NCBI GenBank assembly: GCA_949297185.1
Contig: CASFRM010000013.1
Coordinates: forward strand, 774-64,773
Source: an uncultured Pseudomonadota bacterium
GTDB taxonomy: Bacteria; Pseudomonadota; Alphaproteobacteria; RF32; CAG-239
Direction of reading: 5' to 3'
DNA length: 64,000 nucleotides
Positions 1-27,024 of the stretch are shown one piece after another. Positions within the stretch are counted from its first letter, which is position 1; every line of letters begins with the position of its first letter. Position numbers and translations under genes: made by a program. Under the pieces are notes generated by a model. That model was not told where the DNA came from. It saw only the letters and a program-made list of their open reading frames with translations, and did no database searches.

Positions 1-268
1 GCTCATCAAGCTCTATAACCGTCATTTTTTGAGGACAAGCACTTAAAATTGAACGTGTCAGACCTCCGGGGCCCGGACCTACTTCAAAAGCATGTGCTTG
101 CGAGAAATCTTTTAGGCCTTGTTGCTTTAGGGATAAAGATATTATTTTATCGGTAATATTAGGGTTAAGCAAAAAGTTTTGCCCCAGAGATTTTTTTGCT
201 AAAAGACCATAACTTTCAACCGTGGTACGTAATGAAGGTAATGCCGAAAGTGCTGTTTTTATATCCAT
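1..268 (-). CDS. rsmA: 16S rRNA (adenine1518/1519-N6)-dimethyltransferase RsmA/KsgA, N-terminal part; gene runs off the window edge
   Basis: Minus-strand translation from the ATG at 268 gives MDIKTALSALPSLRTTVESYGLLAKKSLGQNFLLNPNITDKII, the KsgA N-terminus with the GQNFL motif. Its position downstream of surA matches the classical lptD-surA-(pdxA)-ksgA order. Confidence 0.8.
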   Translation of the reverse strand, partial: MDIKTALSALPSLRTTVESYGLLAKKSLGQNFLLNPNITDKIISLSLKQQGLKDFSQAHAFEVGPGPGGLTRSILSACPQKMTVIELDE

Positions 269-4586: not shown

Positions 4587-4753
4587 AGTTGCCGATTATA
4601 ACCGTTATATTTTATATTTAAACTGCTTTATGCAAGATGGTCGATTTTTTGTGAATTGTCAAAATGTTTTTATTAACTAAAATTGTACTTGAAGTTGATT
4701 TTTTTTGCCTTTATGATTCTTGACAGTTACTTAATCTTTTCAAGGAGACGCAG

Positions 4754-5227
4754 ATGGTTGAAACTTCACAAGCCGCGCAAATTGCCAATAAATGGCGAAA
4801 AAAGCGCGGCTCTTTGATTATGGCTTTGCACGAAATCCAAGATGTTAAGGGGTATGTGGACTGGCAAGATGCCGTTGATGTATCTTTGTGTATGGGAATA
4901 CCTTTGGCCAGAATCTATGAGGTTTTAACTTTTTATAATTTCTTTAAGTTGGAGGCTCCGGGAAAAGCAGTTATTTCGGTTTGTACGGGAACGGCTTGCT
5001 ATTTGAAAGGTAATGATAAAGTACTGGAGAAGTTTAAGGCCGAGTTGGGTATTAACGAGGGTGAAAGTACTCCTGATAGAATGTTCCACCTGCAAAGCGT
5101 GCGTTGCGTTGGGTGCTGCGGTTTGGCTCCGGTGTGCGTAGTTAACGGTAAAACCTACGGAAGAATGACACCTGATATGGTACCGCAGATTTTGGAAGAA
5201 TGGCGTCAAGCTTTTAAGGAGAACTAA
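4754..5227 (+). CDS. hydC: NuoE-like (24 kDa) thioredoxin-fold [2Fe-2S] subunit of the [FeFe]-hydrogenase complex (HydC/HndA-like)
   Basis: 157 aa with the Cys pattern CTGTAC...CVGCCGLAPVCVV typical of NuoE/HoxE/HndA. RBS AAGGAGA upstream. Its stop is 1 nt before the next start. Confidence 0.8.
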   Translation: MVETSQAAQIANKWRKKRGSLIMALHEIQDVKGYVDWQDAVDVSLCMGIPLARIYEVLTFYNFFKLEAPGKAVISVCTGTACYLKGNDKVLEKFKAELGINEGESTPDRMFHLQSVRCVGCCGLAPVCVVNGKTYGRMTPDMVPQILEEWRQAFKEN

Positions 5228-5228
5228 C

Positions 5229-6914
5229 ATGGCCGATATGGATTTAGATAAAAGATTTGATATTCACGAAATGGCTAAAAATAAACAAGCCGAAATCGAT
5301 AGATTTGTTTGCTCGATTTATTGTTGCCATTCTACCGGTTGTAAGTCTTCCGGAAGTGATGATTTGATTGATTTGATGAAAAATTTTATTGCCGAAAAAG
5401 AGGCCGAAGACAAGATTAGAATCGTGGCTACGGGGTGCATGGGATTGTGTGCTCAGGGGCCTTTAATCAGAGTGGAGATTAAGGGTAAAAAAGATGTCTT
5501 ATTCAAAAGATTGGATAAAGAATCCGTTGCCGAGATTATGAATGATTATGTTTGGCCGGCAATAAATACTCAGGGCGATTTTTTAGTTCCGGAAAAGTTG
5601 CAAGAGCACATTTTGTCTCTTGATTTGCCGTTCTTTACCAGACAAGAGAAAGTGGTGTTGCAAAATACCGGACATATGGATCCCGAAGATATTCAAGAAT
5701 ATATTGCCCGCGGTGGTTATTTGGCCTTGGAAAAAGCCTTGAAAACCATGACACCGGAACAAGTGGTGGCCGAAATTAAAAAGTCGGGCTTGAGAGGTCG
5801 CGGCGGCGGTGGATTTTCTACCGGTATGAAATGGGAATTGGCCGCGAAGGTGCCGACGATTGATGAGAAATTTATTATTTGTAACGGCGACGAAGGCGAC
5901 CCCGGAGCTTATATGGATAGGTCGATTTTGGAAGGGGATCCTCATGCCGTAATCGAAGGTATGATGATTGCGGCTTATGCAATCGGGGCAACAGAGGGAT
6001 GGTTTTATGTCAGAGCAGAATATCCCTTGGCCGTGGAGAGATTGGAAAAAGCCATTAAAGCATGCAAAAAGAATCGATTGCTCGGTAATAATATTATGGG
6101 AACGGACTTCTGCTTTAATGTTGATATTCGTCTTGGAGCAGGTGCTTTCGTTTGCGGTGAGGAAACCGCTTTGATTCACTCAATTGAAGGAGCCAGAGGT
6201 ACGCCGCGTCCGCGTCCGCCATATCCTACCAACAAGGGATTGTGGGGCAAACCGTCTTGTGTTAACAATGTTGAGACTTTGGCCAATGTGGCAAAGATTT
6301 TGCTCAAAGGTGCCGATTGGTTTGCTTCGTTTGGTACCGAAACTTCTAAGGGTACAAAAGTATTTGCTTTGACCGGTCAGGTCGAACATTCCGGCTTGAT
6401 TGAAGTACCGATGGGAACTACCATTAATGAGATTGTTAATGAAATCGGCGGTGGTGTTCCAAACGGCAAAAAGCTTAAGGCCGTGCAGACCGGAGGACCT
6501 TCGGGCGGTGTTATTCCTAAGGAATATATGGATATGCCGGTGTGCTATGAAGAACTAAAAAAAGTAGGTTCTATCATGGGGTCGGGCGGCATGATTGTTA
6601 TGGATGATACATCTGATATGGTATCAATCGCCAAGTTTTATCTTGATTTTACGGTCGATGAATCTTGCGGAAAATGCGCTCCGTGCAGAATCGGCGGTAA
6701 GCAAATGTTGAGCTTGCTTGATAAAATTAATAAAGGAAAAGGAACCAAAAAGGATTTGGCACAGTTGAGAAAAATCGCTTCGGCAATGCAAAAAGCTTCT
6801 TTGTGCGGTTTGGGTCAGACGGCTCCGAATCCGGTATTGTCGACGCTCAAATTTTATGAAGATGAGTATCAAAGCAAGTTGGTGGATAACAAAAAGGCTG
6901 CAGGGGAGAACTAA
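5229..6914 (+). CDS. hydB: NuoF-like (51 kDa) NADH/FMN-binding subunit with an N-terminal [2Fe-2S] thioredoxin-like domain (HydB/HndC-like)
   Basis: 561 aa. The N-terminal domain carries Cys pairs (CCHSTGC...TGCMGLC). It has the NADH motif GRGGGGFSTGMKWE and the N3 [4Fe-4S] motif ESCGKCAPCRIGG. TAATG overlap with hydA. Confidence 0.85.
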   Translation: MADMDLDKRFDIHEMAKNKQAEIDRFVCSIYCCHSTGCKSSGSDDLIDLMKNFIAEKEAEDKIRIVATGCMGLCAQGPLIRVEIKGKKDVLFKRLDKESVAEIMNDYVWPAINTQGDFLVPEKLQEHILSLDLPFFTRQEKVVLQNTGHMDPEDIQEYIARGGYLALEKALKTMTPEQVVAEIKKSGLRGRGGGGFSTGMKWELAAKVPTIDEKFIICNGDEGDPGAYMDRSILEGDPHAVIEGMMIAAYAIGATEGWFYVRAEYPLAVERLEKAIKACKKNRLLGNNIMGTDFCFNVDIRLGAGAFVCGEETALIHSIEGARGTPRPRPPYPTNKGLWGKPSCVNNVETLANVAKILLKGADWFASFGTETSKGTKVFALTGQVEHSGLIEVPMGTTINEIVNEIGGGVPNGKKLKAVQTGGPSGGVIPKEYMDMPVCYEELKKVGSIMGSGGMIVMDDTSDMVSIAKFYLDFTVDESCGKCAPCRIGGKQMLSLLDKINKGKGTKKDLAQLRKIASAMQKASLCGLGQTAPNPVLSTLKFYEDEYQSKLVDNKKAAGEN

Positions 6915-8680
6915 TGATGGTAAAGCTTAAAATTGATAATTTTGATGTAGAAGTCGAGAGCGGCACCAGTATCTTGGATGCAGCCAGAAAAGTACATATT
7001 GATATTCCGACTTTGTGTAAACACCCTGATGTGGATCCCTCTGCCGGATGCGGAATGTGTATCGTAAAAGTGGGCGGGAGAATATTGCGTTCTTGTTGTA
7101 CTCCGGTAGCAGAAGGTATGGAAGTTGTTACCAATGATGCCGAGTTGCAAGAAACGAGAAAAACCGTTTTGGAACTTATTTTGAGCAACCACCCGAATTA
7201 TTGCTTAAAATGCGCCAGAAGCGGTCAGTGCGAGCTACAAGATTTGGCTATGAGATTTGGTGTTGACCATGATGAAATCAGAAAAATTTTAGCGCCGACC
7301 GAAATAGACGAATCGACTCAAGCAATAGTTTTGGATCCGGCGAAATGTATTGTTTGCGGTCGCTGTGTAGATATTTGCCAAAATCAGCAAAATGTGTGGG
7401 CTTTGAGCTATCAAAACAGAGGTTTGGCAACCAAAATTACCGGTGCCAATGATGCAGATTTGGCAAATACTCCGTGTATTAAATGCGGTCAGTGTGCGGC
7501 GCATTGTCCGACCGGTGCTATAGTTGAATATGACGAAACGCAAAAAGTTTGGGATATGCTCAAAGATAAAGAATTGTTTACCGTAGTGCAAATTGCTCCG
7601 GCGGTCAGAGTGGCTTTGGGCGAAGAATTCGGTTATGATTTCGGTGAAAATTTGACCGGAAAAATCTATGCAGCTTTGCGGAGAATCGGATTTAATAAGG
7701 TTTTTGATACTAACTTCGGTGCAGACTTGACGATTATTGAAGAAGCAAGCGAATTTGTCAGAAGATTTAGTGAAAAAGATAATTTGCCGATGTTTACTTC
7801 TTGCTGTCCGGCATGGGTCGATTATGTGGAAAAATATTATCCGGAGAATATTTCTAACTTGTCGACCTGCAAATCACCGCATCAAATGGTCGGTGCAGTG
7901 GCAAAAACCTATTATGCTCAAAAAGCCGGTGTATCACCGGATAAAATGCGGGTAATTTCGATTATGCCTTGTACGGCAAAAAAATGGGAAGCACATCGTC
8001 ACGAAACCATGTCATCTTCAGGATATCAGGATGTTGATGTGGTGCTGACAACCAGAGAATTGGCCAAGATGATAAGACAAGCCGGCATTAATTTTAAGGG
8101 ATTGCCGGAAGAGGTGGCTGATAATCCATTGGGAGAGTATTCGGGTGCGGCAACCATTTTCGGAGTTACCGGCGGCGTGATGACGGCTGCTTTGCGTACG
8201 GCTTATTTCTATATCACGGGGCAAGAATTGGGAATGCTCAATTTTGCCGAGATTGACGGACTTGACGGTATAAAAGCGGCAGAGGTCGATATCAACGGAA
8301 CCAAGATTAGAATCGCGGTGGTGAATGGTGTCGGCAATGTCGAAGAAGTTATGAGCGCCATAAGAGAGGCTGCAACTAACGGTGAAGAATTGCCGTATCA
8401 TTTTGTTGAGGTTATGGCTTGTCGCGGTGGATGTATAGCCGGCGGCGGTCAGCCCAAAGTAATGATGCATGGTTTGCCCAAACCATGGGGTATTAATGAC
8501 GAAATTCGTAAGCTGCGTTCAAAGGGTTTGAATGATGAAGATGAAGAGGCTAAGAATCGTTTATCTCATCATAATAAATCGATTAAACAAGTTTATGATG
8601 AATTTTTGGGCAAGGCCGGTGAGGGTAAGGCACATGAGTTGTTGCACACCAAGTATCGGCAACGCGACTTATATAAGTAG
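6914..8680 (+). CDS. hydA: [FeFe]-hydrogenase catalytic subunit HydA (M3-type: 2Fe-2S ferredoxin domain, accessory FeS domains, H-cluster)
   Basis: 588 aa. All three H-cluster signatures are present: L1 FTSCCPAWV, L2 IMPCTAKKWE, L3 EVMACRGGCIAGGGQP. The N-terminus has a plant-type 2Fe-2S fold, a His-ligated cluster (HPNYCLKCARSGQC) and two CxxCxxCxxxCP ferredoxin motifs. Confidence 0.92.
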   Translation: MMVKLKIDNFDVEVESGTSILDAARKVHIDIPTLCKHPDVDPSAGCGMCIVKVGGRILRSCCTPVAEGMEVVTNDAELQETRKTVLELILSNHPNYCLKCARSGQCELQDLAMRFGVDHDEIRKILAPTEIDESTQAIVLDPAKCIVCGRCVDICQNQQNVWALSYQNRGLATKITGANDADLANTPCIKCGQCAAHCPTGAIVEYDETQKVWDMLKDKELFTVVQIAPAVRVALGEEFGYDFGENLTGKIYAALRRIGFNKVFDTNFGADLTIIEEASEFVRRFSEKDNLPMFTSCCPAWVDYVEKYYPENISNLSTCKSPHQMVGAVAKTYYAQKAGVSPDKMRVISIMPCTAKKWEAHRHETMSSSGYQDVDVVLTTRELAKMIRQAGINFKGLPEEVADNPLGEYSGAATIFGVTGGVMTAALRTAYFYITGQELGMLNFAEIDGLDGIKAAEVDINGTKIRIAVVNGVGNVEEVMSAIREAATNGEELPYHFVEVMACRGGCIAGGGQPKVMMHGLPKPWGINDEIRKLRSKGLNDEDEEAKNRLSHHNKSIKQVYDEFLGKAGEGKAHELLHTKYRQRDLYK

Positions 8681-8686
8681 TGAAAA

Positions 8687-8712
8687 AGCCGGATGAAAGT
8701 CCGGCTTTTTTG
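8687..8712 (+). terminator. Rho-independent terminator after hydA
   Basis: AGCCGGA-tgaaag-TCCGGCT hairpin followed by a T6 run, starting 7 nt after the hydA stop. Confidence 0.65.
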
Positions 8713-8744: not shown

Positions 8745-8900
8745 TACTGTCACCCTCGGACTTGTTCCGAGGGTCTACCCTATATTGTCATCCTCGGATT
8801 TATTCCGAGGATCTCATGAGTATTGGCACATTGTTTTACTAGATTCTCGGGACAAGCCCGAGAATGACTAAAATGAAAAACATGCCCGAGAATGACATTA
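8745..8900. repeat. Cluster of short REP-like palindromic elements (TGTCA-YCCTCGGR-loop-YCCGAGGR and the inverted TTCTCGGG-loop-CCCGAGAA-TGACA form)
   Basis: Three full hairpins (8753-8773, 8791-8811, 8844-8864) and a partial copy (8884-8897) share a CCGAG / CTCGG core. They lie between convergent hydA and the flagellin-like gene. Confidence 0.6.
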
Positions 8901-24594: not shown

Positions 24595-27024
24595 ATGATA
24601 AACCTAAAAAAAGGAAAAAGTTTGGTCGCTTGGGTGGTGGCTGCATTTTTAGCCATGACCAACGCGGCTTTAGCTTCGGAAATTGATTTGAAAATTCCGT
24701 CGCTTGATGTTTCTTATAACATCTTTGGTTATGCAATTACCGGATCACATATTTTGCTGTATGGTTTGGCAATTTGTGCGTTCGGTTTGTTGTTTGGTTT
24801 GTATGAATTTGTCGGAATTAAAAGAATGCCGGCTCATAAAGCTATGCTTAATGTTTCGCATACAATTTATGAAACATGCAAAACTTATATGAAACAACAA
24901 GCTAAATTGTTGGTGGTTTTGGAATTGTTTATTGCCGCCTGCATATTCTACTATTTCTACTATTTGAATGCAACTCCGCTGCCTAAAGTATTGACTGTTT
25001 TGGCTTGGTCAATTTTGGGTATTTTGGGTTCTTACACAGTGGCTTGGTTCGGTATGAGAATTAATACTTATGCTAACTCACGTACCGCCTTTATGTCATT
25101 GAAAGGAAAACCATATCCGGTAATGAATTTACCTTTGCGCTCCGGTATGTCTATCGGTGTTTTGCTTATCTGCGTTGAATTGGTAATGATGATTTCCATT
25201 CTTTTGTTTGTGGATAAGGAAAATGCCGGTGCTTGCTTTATCGGTTTTGCTATTGGTGAATCTCTCGGTGCTTCGGCTTTGCGTATTTGCGGCGGTATCT
25301 TTACCAAAATTGCCGATATCGGTGCCGATTTGATGAAAATTATTTTCAAAATTGACGAAGATGATGCCAGAAACCCAGGTGTGATTGCTGACTGTACCGG
25401 TGATAATGCCGGTGACTCTGTCGGACCTACCGCCGATGGTTTTGAAACCTATGGCGTGACCGGTGTGGCTTTAATCAGCTTTATCGTTTTGGGTGCCGGC
25501 ATGATGTATGCCACAAACGGCGATTTGGTTATGATGCAAAACGGAATCGACATTCAGGCAAGATTAATCGTATGGATTTTTGCCATGAGATTGTTGATGA
25601 TTTTGACATCGGTCGTTTCTTACTGGTTGAACGGCGTGTTCTCTAAATTGGCATTCGGTAAAAAAGATGCTTTCAATTTTGAAACTCCGCTGACAACATT
25701 GATTTGGTTGACATCAATCATTTCTATTTTGGTTACCTTCGGCGTATCTTATGTGATGATTGGCGATATGGATGAGAATTTGTGGTGGAAACTTTCGGTT
25801 ATTATTTCTTGCGGTACTTTGGCTGCAGCATTAATTCCGGAATTTACCAAAATTTTCACTTCCTCAAAATCCAAACATGTGGAAGAAGTGGTTAATGCTT
25901 CACGCGAAGCCGGTGCTTCTCTTAACATAATCTCCGGTATTGTTGCCGGTAACTTCTCGGCCTTTTGGCAGGGTTTGGTTATGGTCGGTTTGATGGCCGT
26001 TGCTTACTTTACCGCTCGTGAAGGTTTGGATGCTTTCATGGTATATCCGACAATATTTGCTTTTGGTTTGGTGGCTTTCGGTATGCTCGGTATGGGACCT
26101 GTGACCATTGCCGTTGACTCTTACGGACCGGTTACCGATAATGCTCAATCCGTATTTGAATTGTCACAGATTGAAAATATCAAAGGCATTAATAAAGAGA
26201 TTGAAAAAGATTACGGATTTAAGCCCGATTTTGAAAAAGGTAAACACTTCTTGGAAGAAAATGATTCAGCCGGAAATACCTTTAAGGCTACGGCTAAACC
26301 GGTATTAATCGGAACGGCCGTTATCGGTGCTACAACCATGATTTTCTCAATCATCTTGTTGTTAAACTTGCAGCTTAACCTTTTGGATCCTGAAGTATTG
26401 TTCGGTATTATACTGGGCGGTGCGGTAATATTCTGGTTCTCTGGTGCTTCAATGCAAGCCGTTTCGACCGGTGCTTATCGTGCAGTAAACTATATTAAAA
26501 AGCACATTAAGCTAAATACCGCAAAAGCTGCTTCAATCGAAGATTCAAAGAAAGTGGTACAAATTTGTACTTTGTATGCTCAAAAAGGTATGTTTAACAT
26601 CTTTATCGTGATTTTCTCTTTCACGATAGCCTTTGCATGCTTTGATGCAAATTTATTTGCCAGCTATTTGATTTCGATTGCCGTATTTGGGTTGTTCCAA
26701 GCTTTGTATATGGCTAATGCCGGCGGTGCTTGGGATAATGCCAAGAAGGTTGTTGAGGTTGATTTGGGCGAAAAAGGTACTCCGTTGCATGATGCTTCGG
26801 TAGTAGGTGATACCGTTGGTGATCCTTATAAGGATACCTCGTCGGTAGCCTTGAACCCGATTATCAAGTTCACCACTTTGTTTGGCTTGTTGGCGGTTGA
26901 AATGGCCGTGGCAGCTCCGAAGTGCGTATCTATGGGATTGGGAATCGCCTTCTTTGTTTTGGGATTGATTTTTGTATGGCGTTCTTTCTATGCCATGAGA
27001 ATCGAACCGGCAAATAAAGACTAA
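24595..27024 (+). CDS. hppA: Membrane-bound ion-pumping pyrophosphatase (M-PPase)
   Basis: 809 aa. PPase signatures are present: DCTGDNAGDSVGPTADGFETY and VGDTVGDPYKDTSSVALNPIIK. About 16 TM segments. There is an N-terminal extension of about 100 aa with a signal-peptide-like start. Confidence 0.9.
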   Translation: MINLKKGKSLVAWVVAAFLAMTNAALASEIDLKIPSLDVSYNIFGYAITGSHILLYGLAICAFGLLFGLYEFVGIKRMPAHKAMLNVSHTIYETCKTYMKQQAKLLVVLELFIAACIFYYFYYLNATPLPKVLTVLAWSILGILGSYTVAWFGMRINTYANSRTAFMSLKGKPYPVMNLPLRSGMSIGVLLICVELVMMISILLFVDKENAGACFIGFAIGESLGASALRICGGIFTKIADIGADLMKIIFKIDEDDARNPGVIADCTGDNAGDSVGPTADGFETYGVTGVALISFIVLGAGMMYATNGDLVMMQNGIDIQARLIVWIFAMRLLMILTSVVSYWLNGVFSKLAFGKKDAFNFETPLTTLIWLTSIISILVTFGVSYVMIGDMDENLWWKLSVIISCGTLAAALIPEFTKIFTSSKSKHVEEVVNASREAGASLNIISGIVAGNFSAFWQGLVMVGLMAVAYFTAREGLDAFMVYPTIFAFGLVAFGMLGMGPVTIAVDSYGPVTDNAQSVFELSQIENIKGINKEIEKDYGFKPDFEKGKHFLEENDSAGNTFKATAKPVLIGTAVIGATTMIFSIILLLNLQLNLLDPEVLFGIILGGAVIFWFSGASMQAVSTGAYRAVNYIKKHIKLNTAKAASIEDSKKVVQICTLYAQKGMFNIFIVIFSFTIAFACFDANLFASYLISIAVFGLFQALYMANAGGAWDNAKKVVEVDLGEKGTPLHDASVVGDTVGDPYKDTSSVALNPIIKFTTLFGLLAVEMAVAAPKCVSMGLGIAFFVLGLIFVWRSFYAMRIEPANKD

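Follow-up and report, generated by a model that had tools for sequence, protein, structure and literature searches.

An M3 [FeFe]-hydrogenase gene beside homologues of NuoE and NuoF, 'resembling the hymABC operon', was reported by Degli Esposti et al. (2016) for two gut-metagenome Alphaproteobacteria, 'Azospirillum sp. CAG:239' and 'Acetobacter sp. CAG:977' (PMC4967309). Their NuoF-like HymB was described with an extra N-terminal [2Fe-2S] cluster, and HydE, HydF, HydG, pyruvate:ferredoxin oxidoreductase (PFOR) and a short ferredoxin are listed elsewhere in the genomes under non-adjacent accession numbers. Here we analyzed a gene cluster of this kind, hydCBA, which is located at positions 4754 to 8680 of a 64,000-nucleotide (nt) stretch of DNA, here referred to as the window. 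The window is part of contig CASFRM010000013.1 (assembly GCA_949297185.1) from an uncultured alphaproteobacterium of the GTDB lineage RF32; CAG-239.

In current structural models of bifurcating HydABC (Bfu) enzymes the low-potential path leads from cluster C1 over B3 and B4 to ferredoxin, with B3 and B4 being located in a C-terminal domain that has two CX2CX2CX3CP motifs (Katsyv 2023, PMC10021017; Xiao 2025, PMC12018979). The B5 cluster of a FeFe-HydABC hydrogenase was reported to be essential for bifurcation by mutagenesis (PMC12018979). Enzymes without B3/B4 have been described as well. Hyd1ABC of S. wolfei is experimentally non-bifurcating and NADH-dependent (PMC11406978), and 'sub-type II' BfuB proteins lacking both clusters are predicted to be non-bifurcating (Schut 2022, PMC9304861). 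According to Losey et al. (2020) three residue signatures are more diagnostic of bifurcation than the number of clusters (PMC7311640). In Thermotoga maritima numbering A/E 232 with M 234, F 367 and GGPSG 427-431 indicate bifurcation, whereas S. wolfei-type beta subunits have T/S 232, K/S/A 234 and Y 367, lack GGPSG and form a separate clade (PMC7311640). A [FeFe]-hydrogenase served by an NADH module of NuoE and NuoF (24/51 kDa) is furthermore found in the hydrogenosomes of Trichomonas and anaerobic fungi (PMC13556243).

The cluster in the window is a genuine, intact and native operon. It is essentially an ordinary member of the system already described for this bacterial group. The gene content is the same (NuoE-like, NuoF-like with N-terminal [2Fe-2S], M3 HydA), with maturases and PFOR being unlinked in the 2016 genomes. 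The organisms are of the same kind; genomes labelled 'uncultured Azospirillum sp.' and 'Proteobacteria bacterium CAG:495' have orthologues that share 71-74% HydA identity with the window, although the window represents another species or genus. The HydB protein of the window and of every member of its clade lacks the C-terminal 2x[4Fe-4S] ferredoxin-like domain that holds B3/B4. No mention of this missing domain was found in the available part of the 2016 report.

The hydCBA operon and its subunits

Three open reading frames (ORFs) on the plus strand make up the operon. These are hydC (4754-5227) for a NuoE-like gamma subunit of 157 amino acids (aa), hydB (5229-6914) for a NuoF-like flavoprotein beta subunit of 561 aa and hydA (6914-8680) for the M3-type catalytic subunit of 588 aa. 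If translation of hydA starts at the second ATG (6917), the start used by the orthologues, the protein has 587 aa. A spacer of 1 nt separates hydC from hydB, and hydB and hydA overlap in TAATG. The gene trio and its tight arrangement, as described in an earlier note made from the window sequence alone, were borne out by ORFs, Pfam domains and the spacer and overlap. Antisense ORFs inside the hyd genes are by-products of the coding frames.

Judged by motifs, accessory domains and curated cut-offs, HydA is a group A, M3 [FeFe]-hydrogenase. Its Pfam domains are arranged in the M3 order Fer2_4, NADH-G_4Fe-4S_3, two Fer4 (Fer4_7), Fe_hyd_lg_C (4e-99) and Fe_hyd_SSU. The H-cluster motifs named in the earlier note were all intact on re-translation, and so was every accessory Fe-S ligand. 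Motif L1 reads TSCCPAW (aa 295-301, 7796-7816), L2 MPCTAKKWE (aa 351-359, 7964-7990) and L3 EVMACRGGCIAGGGQP (aa 499-514, 8408-8455). Their general forms are TSCCPxW, MPCxxKxxE and ExMACxxGCxxGGGQP. All three motifs were invariant in 120 of the 120 closest database homologues. The ligands of the accessory clusters, encoded at 7016-7510 on the same strand, are C35/C46/C49/C61-62 for the [2Fe-2S] cluster, H93/C97/C100/C106 for the His-ligated [4Fe-4S] cluster, and C145/148/151/155 and C188/191/194/198 for the two ferredoxin-type [4Fe-4S] sites. HydA scored 790.2 bits with the NCBIfam model NF040763 ('NADH-dependent [FeFe] hydrogenase, group A6'; cut-off 765) and 517 with TIGR02512 ('[FeFe] hydrogenase, group A'; cut-off 406). 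With the clostridial ferredoxin-hydrogenase model NF040762 it reached 615 and stayed under the cut-off of 900. The top match in the PDB was HydA1 of structure 8a6t (chain A, 4e-170, 570 bits).

HydC belongs to the thioredoxin-like [2Fe-2S] family (PF01257, 1.8e-46) and carries C77, C82, C118 and C122 as ligands of C1. It remained under the cut-off of every NuoE and HoxE model of NCBIfam, the best NuoE scores being 126 (cut-off 142) and 123 (cut-off 141).

In HydB a second copy of the HydC domain is fused to the N-terminus, followed by Complex1_51K, SLBB and NADH_4Fe-4S. This N-terminal thioredoxin-like [2Fe-2S] domain had been predicted from the sequence and was recovered both as a Pfam domain and with its four ligands (C33, C38, C70, C74). 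The flavin mononucleotide (FMN) loop GRGGGGF (190-196) is present, as are DPGAYMDR (224-231), GAGAFVCGE (303-311) and GGPSG (422-426), and the N3-type [4Fe-4S] cluster B1 has the ligands C480, C483, C486 and C526. All NuoF models of NCBIfam scored under their cut-offs (477 against 559, 386 against 749 and 381.5 against 389).

Among solved structures the best sequence matches were found in the bifurcating HydABC of Thermoanaerobacter kivui, Acetobacterium woodii and T. maritima (8a6t, 7q4v, 7p5h) and in HydB of the NiFe-HydABCSL enzyme of Acetomicrobium mobile (7t2r). HydB scored 674 bits for 7t2r_B, 654 for 7q4v_B and 582 for 8a6t_B, compared to 395 for FdsB and about 290 for mitochondrial NDUFV1. 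With the bifurcating enzymes the operon shares the M3 wire of HydA, the core of FMN, B1 and C1, and the N-terminal [2Fe-2S] domain and diagnostic residues (A/M, F, GGPSG) of HydB. However, HydB of the window stops before the C-terminal B3/B4 domain of about 87 aa and its two extra cysteines. The alignment covers residues 7-530 of the 597-aa 7t2r_B, where HydB ends. Two further differences are that HydA has no C-terminal [2Fe-2S] domain as in T. maritima, and that the operon contains neither hydD nor the histidine-kinase-like gene of other HydABC operons.

The C-terminus of HydB extends 26 aa past GQTAPNP and contains no cysteine. The same applies to all of the approximately 70 alphaproteobacterial orthologues, which end 15-30 aa past the last N3-type cysteine (SLCGLGQTAPNP) without any further cysteine. 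In contrast, HydB of Sphaerochaeta and Dehalococcoidia has a tail of 87 aa with 10 cysteines and two CxxCxxCxxxC motifs. Upstream of these ferredoxin motifs the outgroup tails carry two extra cysteines (e.g. CPSGTC) without counterpart in HydB of the window; they are presumed to be ligands of the Zn/B2 site. A search of the 64 kb for CxxCxxCxxxC[P/G/A/S], as expected for a detached ferredoxin subunit, had its only match inside HydA.

The earlier note had also likened the trio to the 24/51-kDa subunits of hydrogenosomes. This holds for the general architecture, in which a [FeFe]-hydrogenase is served by an NADH module, but not for the sequence. HydB is far closer to HydABC proteins (654-674 bits) than to NDUFV1, and at the diagnostic sites it has A/M and F instead of the T/K and Y of complex-I-type proteins. 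The NuoF of hydrogenosomes is of the complex-I type and clusters with NDUFV1, as was reported for anaerobic fungi (PMC13556243), and has no N-terminal [2Fe-2S] domain; this HydB-type domain is reported to have no equivalent in anaerobic eukaryotes (PMC4967309). The Trichomonas and fungal systems are probably non-bifurcating, like the enzyme predicted below.

Distribution of the operon and ancestry of the short HydB

In a scan of one genome for each GTDB species, 79 loci were recovered. About 70 of these belong to uncultured Alphaproteobacteria from the guts of human, mouse, chicken, rabbit, horse and ruminants, with HydA identities of 68-95%. Among the record names are 'uncultured Azospirillum sp.', 'Proteobacteria bacterium CAG:495' and 'Candidatus Scatocola faecigallinarum' (NCBI lineage Rhodospirillales), along with rumen and hindgut metagenome-assembled genomes (MAGs) of the RGIG series. 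The nearest genome copies (L004 and L005) share 94-95% HydA identity with the window, whereas Sphaerochaeta and a Dehalococcoidia MAG, which come closest among non-alphaproteobacterial sequences, share 53-56%.

Searching all loci with the window proteins (tblastn) revealed hydC, hydB and hydA together in every complete locus. A divergent surA-lptD-lptG block adjoins hydCBA in 47 species-level genomes. Across this series the identity of SurA drops to 35-50%, while HydC, HydB and HydA hold at 70-90%. In view of this clade-wide synteny and strong conservation the operon is old and strongly constrained, an ancestral and vertically inherited trait of the gut and rumen alphaproteobacterial clade.

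The earlier note had called the surroundings endosymbiont-like and hydrogenases unexpected there. This does not apply, since about 70 genomes of the clade carry the operon and the window also encodes a flagellin and the complete Lpt machinery for lipopolysaccharide export. The endosymbiont-like appearance comes from the small, AT-rich genomes of the lineage; MAGs of the order RF32 from ruminant guts with 1.59 Mb were reported by Xie et al. (PMC8199421). Re-examination thus removes the impression of an anomaly or contaminant. As the operon shows, members of this widespread, uncultured gut and rumen lineage are anaerobes with a part in H2 cycling. The 2016 debate on an alphaproteobacterial origin of eukaryotic hydrogenases had already brought up this role.

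A 391-kb contig deposited as 'MAG: Lactobacillaceae bacterium' (L065, JAISVX010000001.1) carries an alphaproteobacterial-type hydCBA with short HydB and 68% HydA identity. Its Lactobacillaceae label is probably wrong.

To trace the short HydB we searched 1.84 billion cluster representatives exhaustively with HMMER. Of the close relatives that show the bifurcating signature, nearly all possess the two-cluster tail or a different C-terminal fusion, for instance to GltD-like modules. A short tail in combination with the full signature was rare and confined to the 50%-identity cluster of the window itself, represented by P0121, and to P0124. Both HydBs are encoded in hydC-hydB-hydA operons of other organisms (L083/L084 and L085).

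Neighbor-joining trees of the HydB core region were calculated from a set holding no labelled S. wolfei or S. aciditrophicus sequence. The short-HydB clade was monophyletic in 59 of 60 replicates, and in all 60 it was placed inside at least two successive sister groups with the ferredoxin domain before any complex-I-type sequence. From this nested position it follows, on the evidence of the trees, that the B3/B4 domain was lost secondarily from a bifurcating-type ancestor.

The operons of L083/L084 (ENA ERZ10759792, ERZ10759738) and L085 (GCA_036681025.1) encode a HydB without ferredoxin domain and with 62-63% identity; in L085 the N-terminal domain of HydB has lost its cysteines as well. Among the closest HydBs outside the clade, P0125, P0143 and P0144 (860-1055 aa) carry a GltD/NfnB-like module (Fer4_20 + Pyr_redox_2) in place of the ferredoxin domain, and P0122 carries a duplicated NADH_4Fe-4S region instead. 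The Sphaerochaeta operons (L074-L078, L082) have a gap of about 1 kb between hydC and hydB and the Dehalococcoidia operon (L079) one of 376 nt, which leaves room for an extra gene. The gap may correspond to hydD or the histidine-kinase-like genes of other HydABC operons and is missing from all alphaproteobacterial operons.

Predicted function and alternative explanations

From gene content, cofactor ligands, the absence of B3/B4, clade conservation and synteny we infer a coupling mode and a direction of catalysis. With moderate confidence we predict that hydCBA encodes a reversible, ferredoxin-independent NAD(H):H2 oxidoreductase, that is, a soluble heterotrimeric [FeFe]-hydrogenase connecting the NAD+/NADH pool with H+/H2. 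NADH would bind at the FMN of HydB, and electrons would pass through B1 and reach the H-cluster by the [2Fe-2S]/[4Fe-4S] wire of the N-terminal HydA region, with HydC supplying C1 next to the flavin. Independence of ferredoxin is predicted because HydB lost the C-terminal domain with B3/B4 and probably the Zn/B2 site, a domain that forms the low-potential branch to ferredoxin in bifurcating HydABC. The enzyme could dispose of NADH as H2 while partner organisms keep H2 low, or could take up gut H2 to form NADH. The direction would be set by the H2 partial pressure, and at higher gut H2 the exergonic one would be uptake. In lacking B3/B4 the beta subunit resembles that of S. wolfei Hyd1ABC and its relatives, in which HydA, NuoF-like and NuoE-like modules are likewise combined (as a trimer or fused) and ferredoxin-independence is predicted as well.

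Several observations weigh against this prediction. The diagnostic residues of HydB are of the bifurcating type (A227, M229, F307 and F365, GGPSG), which is the opposite of the S. wolfei type at all three sites. All clade members sampled showed the same state. The columns were read from the alignment, replacing a cruder classification of HydB representatives by regular expressions that was unreliable. T. maritima position 367 could not be mapped unambiguously, but both candidate columns (F307, F365) carry F, as in the domain-bearing HydBs. Furthermore, HydB nests among bifurcating-type HydBs and not with complex-I or Fds-type proteins. The retained N-terminal [2Fe-2S] cluster corresponds to the B5 site of PMC12018979. 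No radical-SAM or HydF-type family was detected among the window ORFs scanned with Pfam (those of at least 150 aa, four excepted), in line with the earlier note, which had seen no hydE, hydF or hydG in the 64-kb window. We know of no characterized enzyme with this exact combination of features. Finally, NADH can drive H2 formation only where H2 is very low (low-Pa range; PMC13556243), and its level in the gut can be high. Operation in the direction of H2 uptake would avoid this thermodynamic problem of forming H2 from NADH alone.

Alternatively, bifurcation or confurcation could persist (NADH + reduced ferredoxin -> 2 H2, as in the HydABC of Thermotoga, Acetobacterium and Thermoanaerobacter). 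A free clostridial-type 2x[4Fe-4S] ferredoxin would then take the place of the lost domain, in direct electron exchange with the mobile C1 of HydC. The conserved residues, the retained N-terminal cluster and the nested position of HydB speak for this explanation, and all parts of the flavobicluster (FMN, B1 and C1; concept in PMC12018979) are present. Reduced ferredoxin should be available, since relatives encode PFOR and a short ferredoxin (PMC4967309), and confurcation would solve the thermodynamic problem at gut H2 levels. On the other hand, the tested homologues without B3/B4 are non-bifurcating, and in the structure that captured ferredoxin it was 12.8 Å from B3/B4 and 28.7 Å from C1 (PMC12018979). 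Additionally, no ferredoxin gene is linked to the operon, neither in the window nor among the conserved neighbors of 70 related loci. We consider continued bifurcation possible but rather unlikely. Sequence alone cannot decide between the two explanations. The earlier note had left the choice between an NADH-dependent and a bifurcating enzyme open; the architecture it described was found, except that the ferredoxin-like domain with B3/B4, as bifurcating enzymes have it, is missing from HydB.

Both explanations presuppose a working and native hydrogenase. Instead, the operon might be a maturase-less relic, or its first two genes might encode the NuoE/NuoF module of complex I. HydE, HydF and HydG were detected neither among the scanned window ORFs nor, at 70 related loci, in the roughly 10 kb around hydA (859 ORFs of at least 200 aa clustered, conserved neighbors annotated). 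However, HydEFG are unlinked in this group, as PMC4967309 documents for relatives, and we infer that they are encoded elsewhere in this particular genome too. HydC, HydB and HydA (70-97% identity) are better conserved across the clade than the flanking housekeeping genes and every cofactor ligand is invariant. A complex I module is contradicted by the NuoE and NuoF equivalog models, all of which scored under cut-off, by the absence of nuo genes from the window and by the translational coupling of hydC and hydB to hydA. A non-functional or misassigned operon is accordingly very improbable. Even less credible is a foreign origin of the hyd genes, either as a mis-binned fragment of a Firmicute, Thermotogae or Spirochaete or by very recent horizontal acquisition. 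Their guanine-cytosine (GC) content of 0.437-0.439 lies about 1.2 standard deviations (sd) above the mean of the window genes (0.406, sd 0.026), and the closest relatives outside the Alphaproteobacteria are the Sphaerochaeta and the Dehalococcoidia MAG mentioned above. However, GC content, GC content at third codon positions and codon-usage distance, a comparison suggested by the earlier note and made here against the window genes, are all within the window's own distribution, the latter two also within the range of its other long genes. The contig carries 64 kb of housekeeping genes and no mobile-element genes flank the operon. An identical HydA sequence was present on four metagenome contigs, and in all three that were read, from independent assemblies, the lptG/hydCBA arrangement is the same. 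Together with the synteny in 47 species-level genomes of deep divergence and the native codon usage this led us to reject a contaminant or recent transfer, including the Firmicute or Thermotogae contig considered in the earlier note; the idea is effectively refuted.

Returning to the ferredoxin-independent oxidoreductase, the clade-wide loss of the ferredoxin branch of HydB would shift the predicted physiology from confurcation of NADH and ferredoxin to H2 evolution from NADH only or to H2 uptake. That an otherwise bifurcating-type HydB has lost this domain gives enzymology a modest but real lead, and the natural variant could serve to test current models of flavin-based bifurcation in HydABC. 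As a tentative suggestion, which we hold to be doubtful, the short-HydB enzymes including those of L083/L084 and L085 might be B3/B4-deleted derivatives of bifurcating HydABC that keep the flavobicluster, the N-terminal [2Fe-2S] and the signature residues, and that either still bifurcate or took an independent, recent route to an NADH-linked enzyme. If they still bifurcate via ferredoxin at HydC, the fused domain would be dispensable and the minimal Bfu core would have to be redefined. If they are purely NADH-linked, this route from a bifurcating enzyme would be independent, recent and distinct from the S. wolfei lineage. Either way they could be used as they are to test the disputed HydABC mechanism.

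Control signals and neighboring genes

The divergent intergenic region between lptG and hydC (4587-4753, plus strand) contains sigma-70-like hexamers, e.g. TTGTCA-16-TAAAAT at 4656-4683, and a Shine-Dalgarno sequence AAGGAG (4742-4747) is located 6 nt upstream of the hydC ATG. The consensus scan for promoters and terminators gave 16 sites compared to 10.3 expected in the scanned region, which is barely above shuffled sequence and therefore weak evidence. An inverted-repeat search found a perfect hairpin with an 11-bp stem (AAAAAGCCGGA-TGAAAG-TCCGGCTTTTT, 8683-8710), 2 nt downstream of the hydA stop codon. It is flanked by A and T runs and, although not listed by the consensus scan, looks like a bidirectional intrinsic terminator ending the hydCBA operon.

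Between this hairpin and the flagellin stop codon (8745-8896) three more hairpins were found, all of one type with stems of 9 bp and loops of 5 nt (..CCTCGGA-N5-TCCGAGG.. and ATTCTCGGG-N5-CCCGAGAAT). Two of them are located inside 32-nt direct repeats which are 84% alike, and no further copy of the pattern exists in the 64 kb. They may represent a REP-like or miniature palindromic element.

The flagellin gene (8901-10724, minus strand) encodes an unusually long protein of 607 aa. Only its N- and C-terminal helical domains matched Pfam, while the central region of about 400 aa had no match. It adjoins hydA only in the window's own contigs; in other genomes flagellin is absent at that position or only 36-50% identical. 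Two adjacent minus-strand ORFs without Pfam match follow at 10950-12308 (452 aa) and 12308-13372 (354 aa), the latter of which looks hydrophobic. In several related genomes (L006, L007, L014 and L073) the 452-aa protein is encoded immediately downstream of hydA, with 72-74% conservation.

Upstream of hydC the divergent genes lptG, lptD and surA were identified by Pfam, and the window edge (2-268, minus strand) holds the first 89 codons of ksgA. An H+-PPase is encoded at 24595-27024. These neighbors had all been named correctly in the earlier note. The remaining window contains housekeeping genes, among them leuS, lptE, holA, nusA, infB, pnp, ftsK and murJ; tRNA and Rfam scans of the window found nothing.

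Conserved neighbors at the 70 related loci comprise a glycogen-synthase-like protein, UvrD, PD-(D/E)XK, OEP, a protein kinase and unknowns. The first of these, a glycogen/starch-synthase-like glycosyltransferase of 681 aa, is a conserved neighbor in 34 related genomes (L060, positions 5681-7726, and 33 other loci). In L060 it is located directly upstream of hydC on the same strand, and the lpt block is missing there.

GC skew was positive in nearly every 2-kb window irrespective of the coding strand, and the cumulative skew rises nearly monotonically over positions 1-64000. This suggests a single replichore for the entire window, on which the plus strand is the leading strand.

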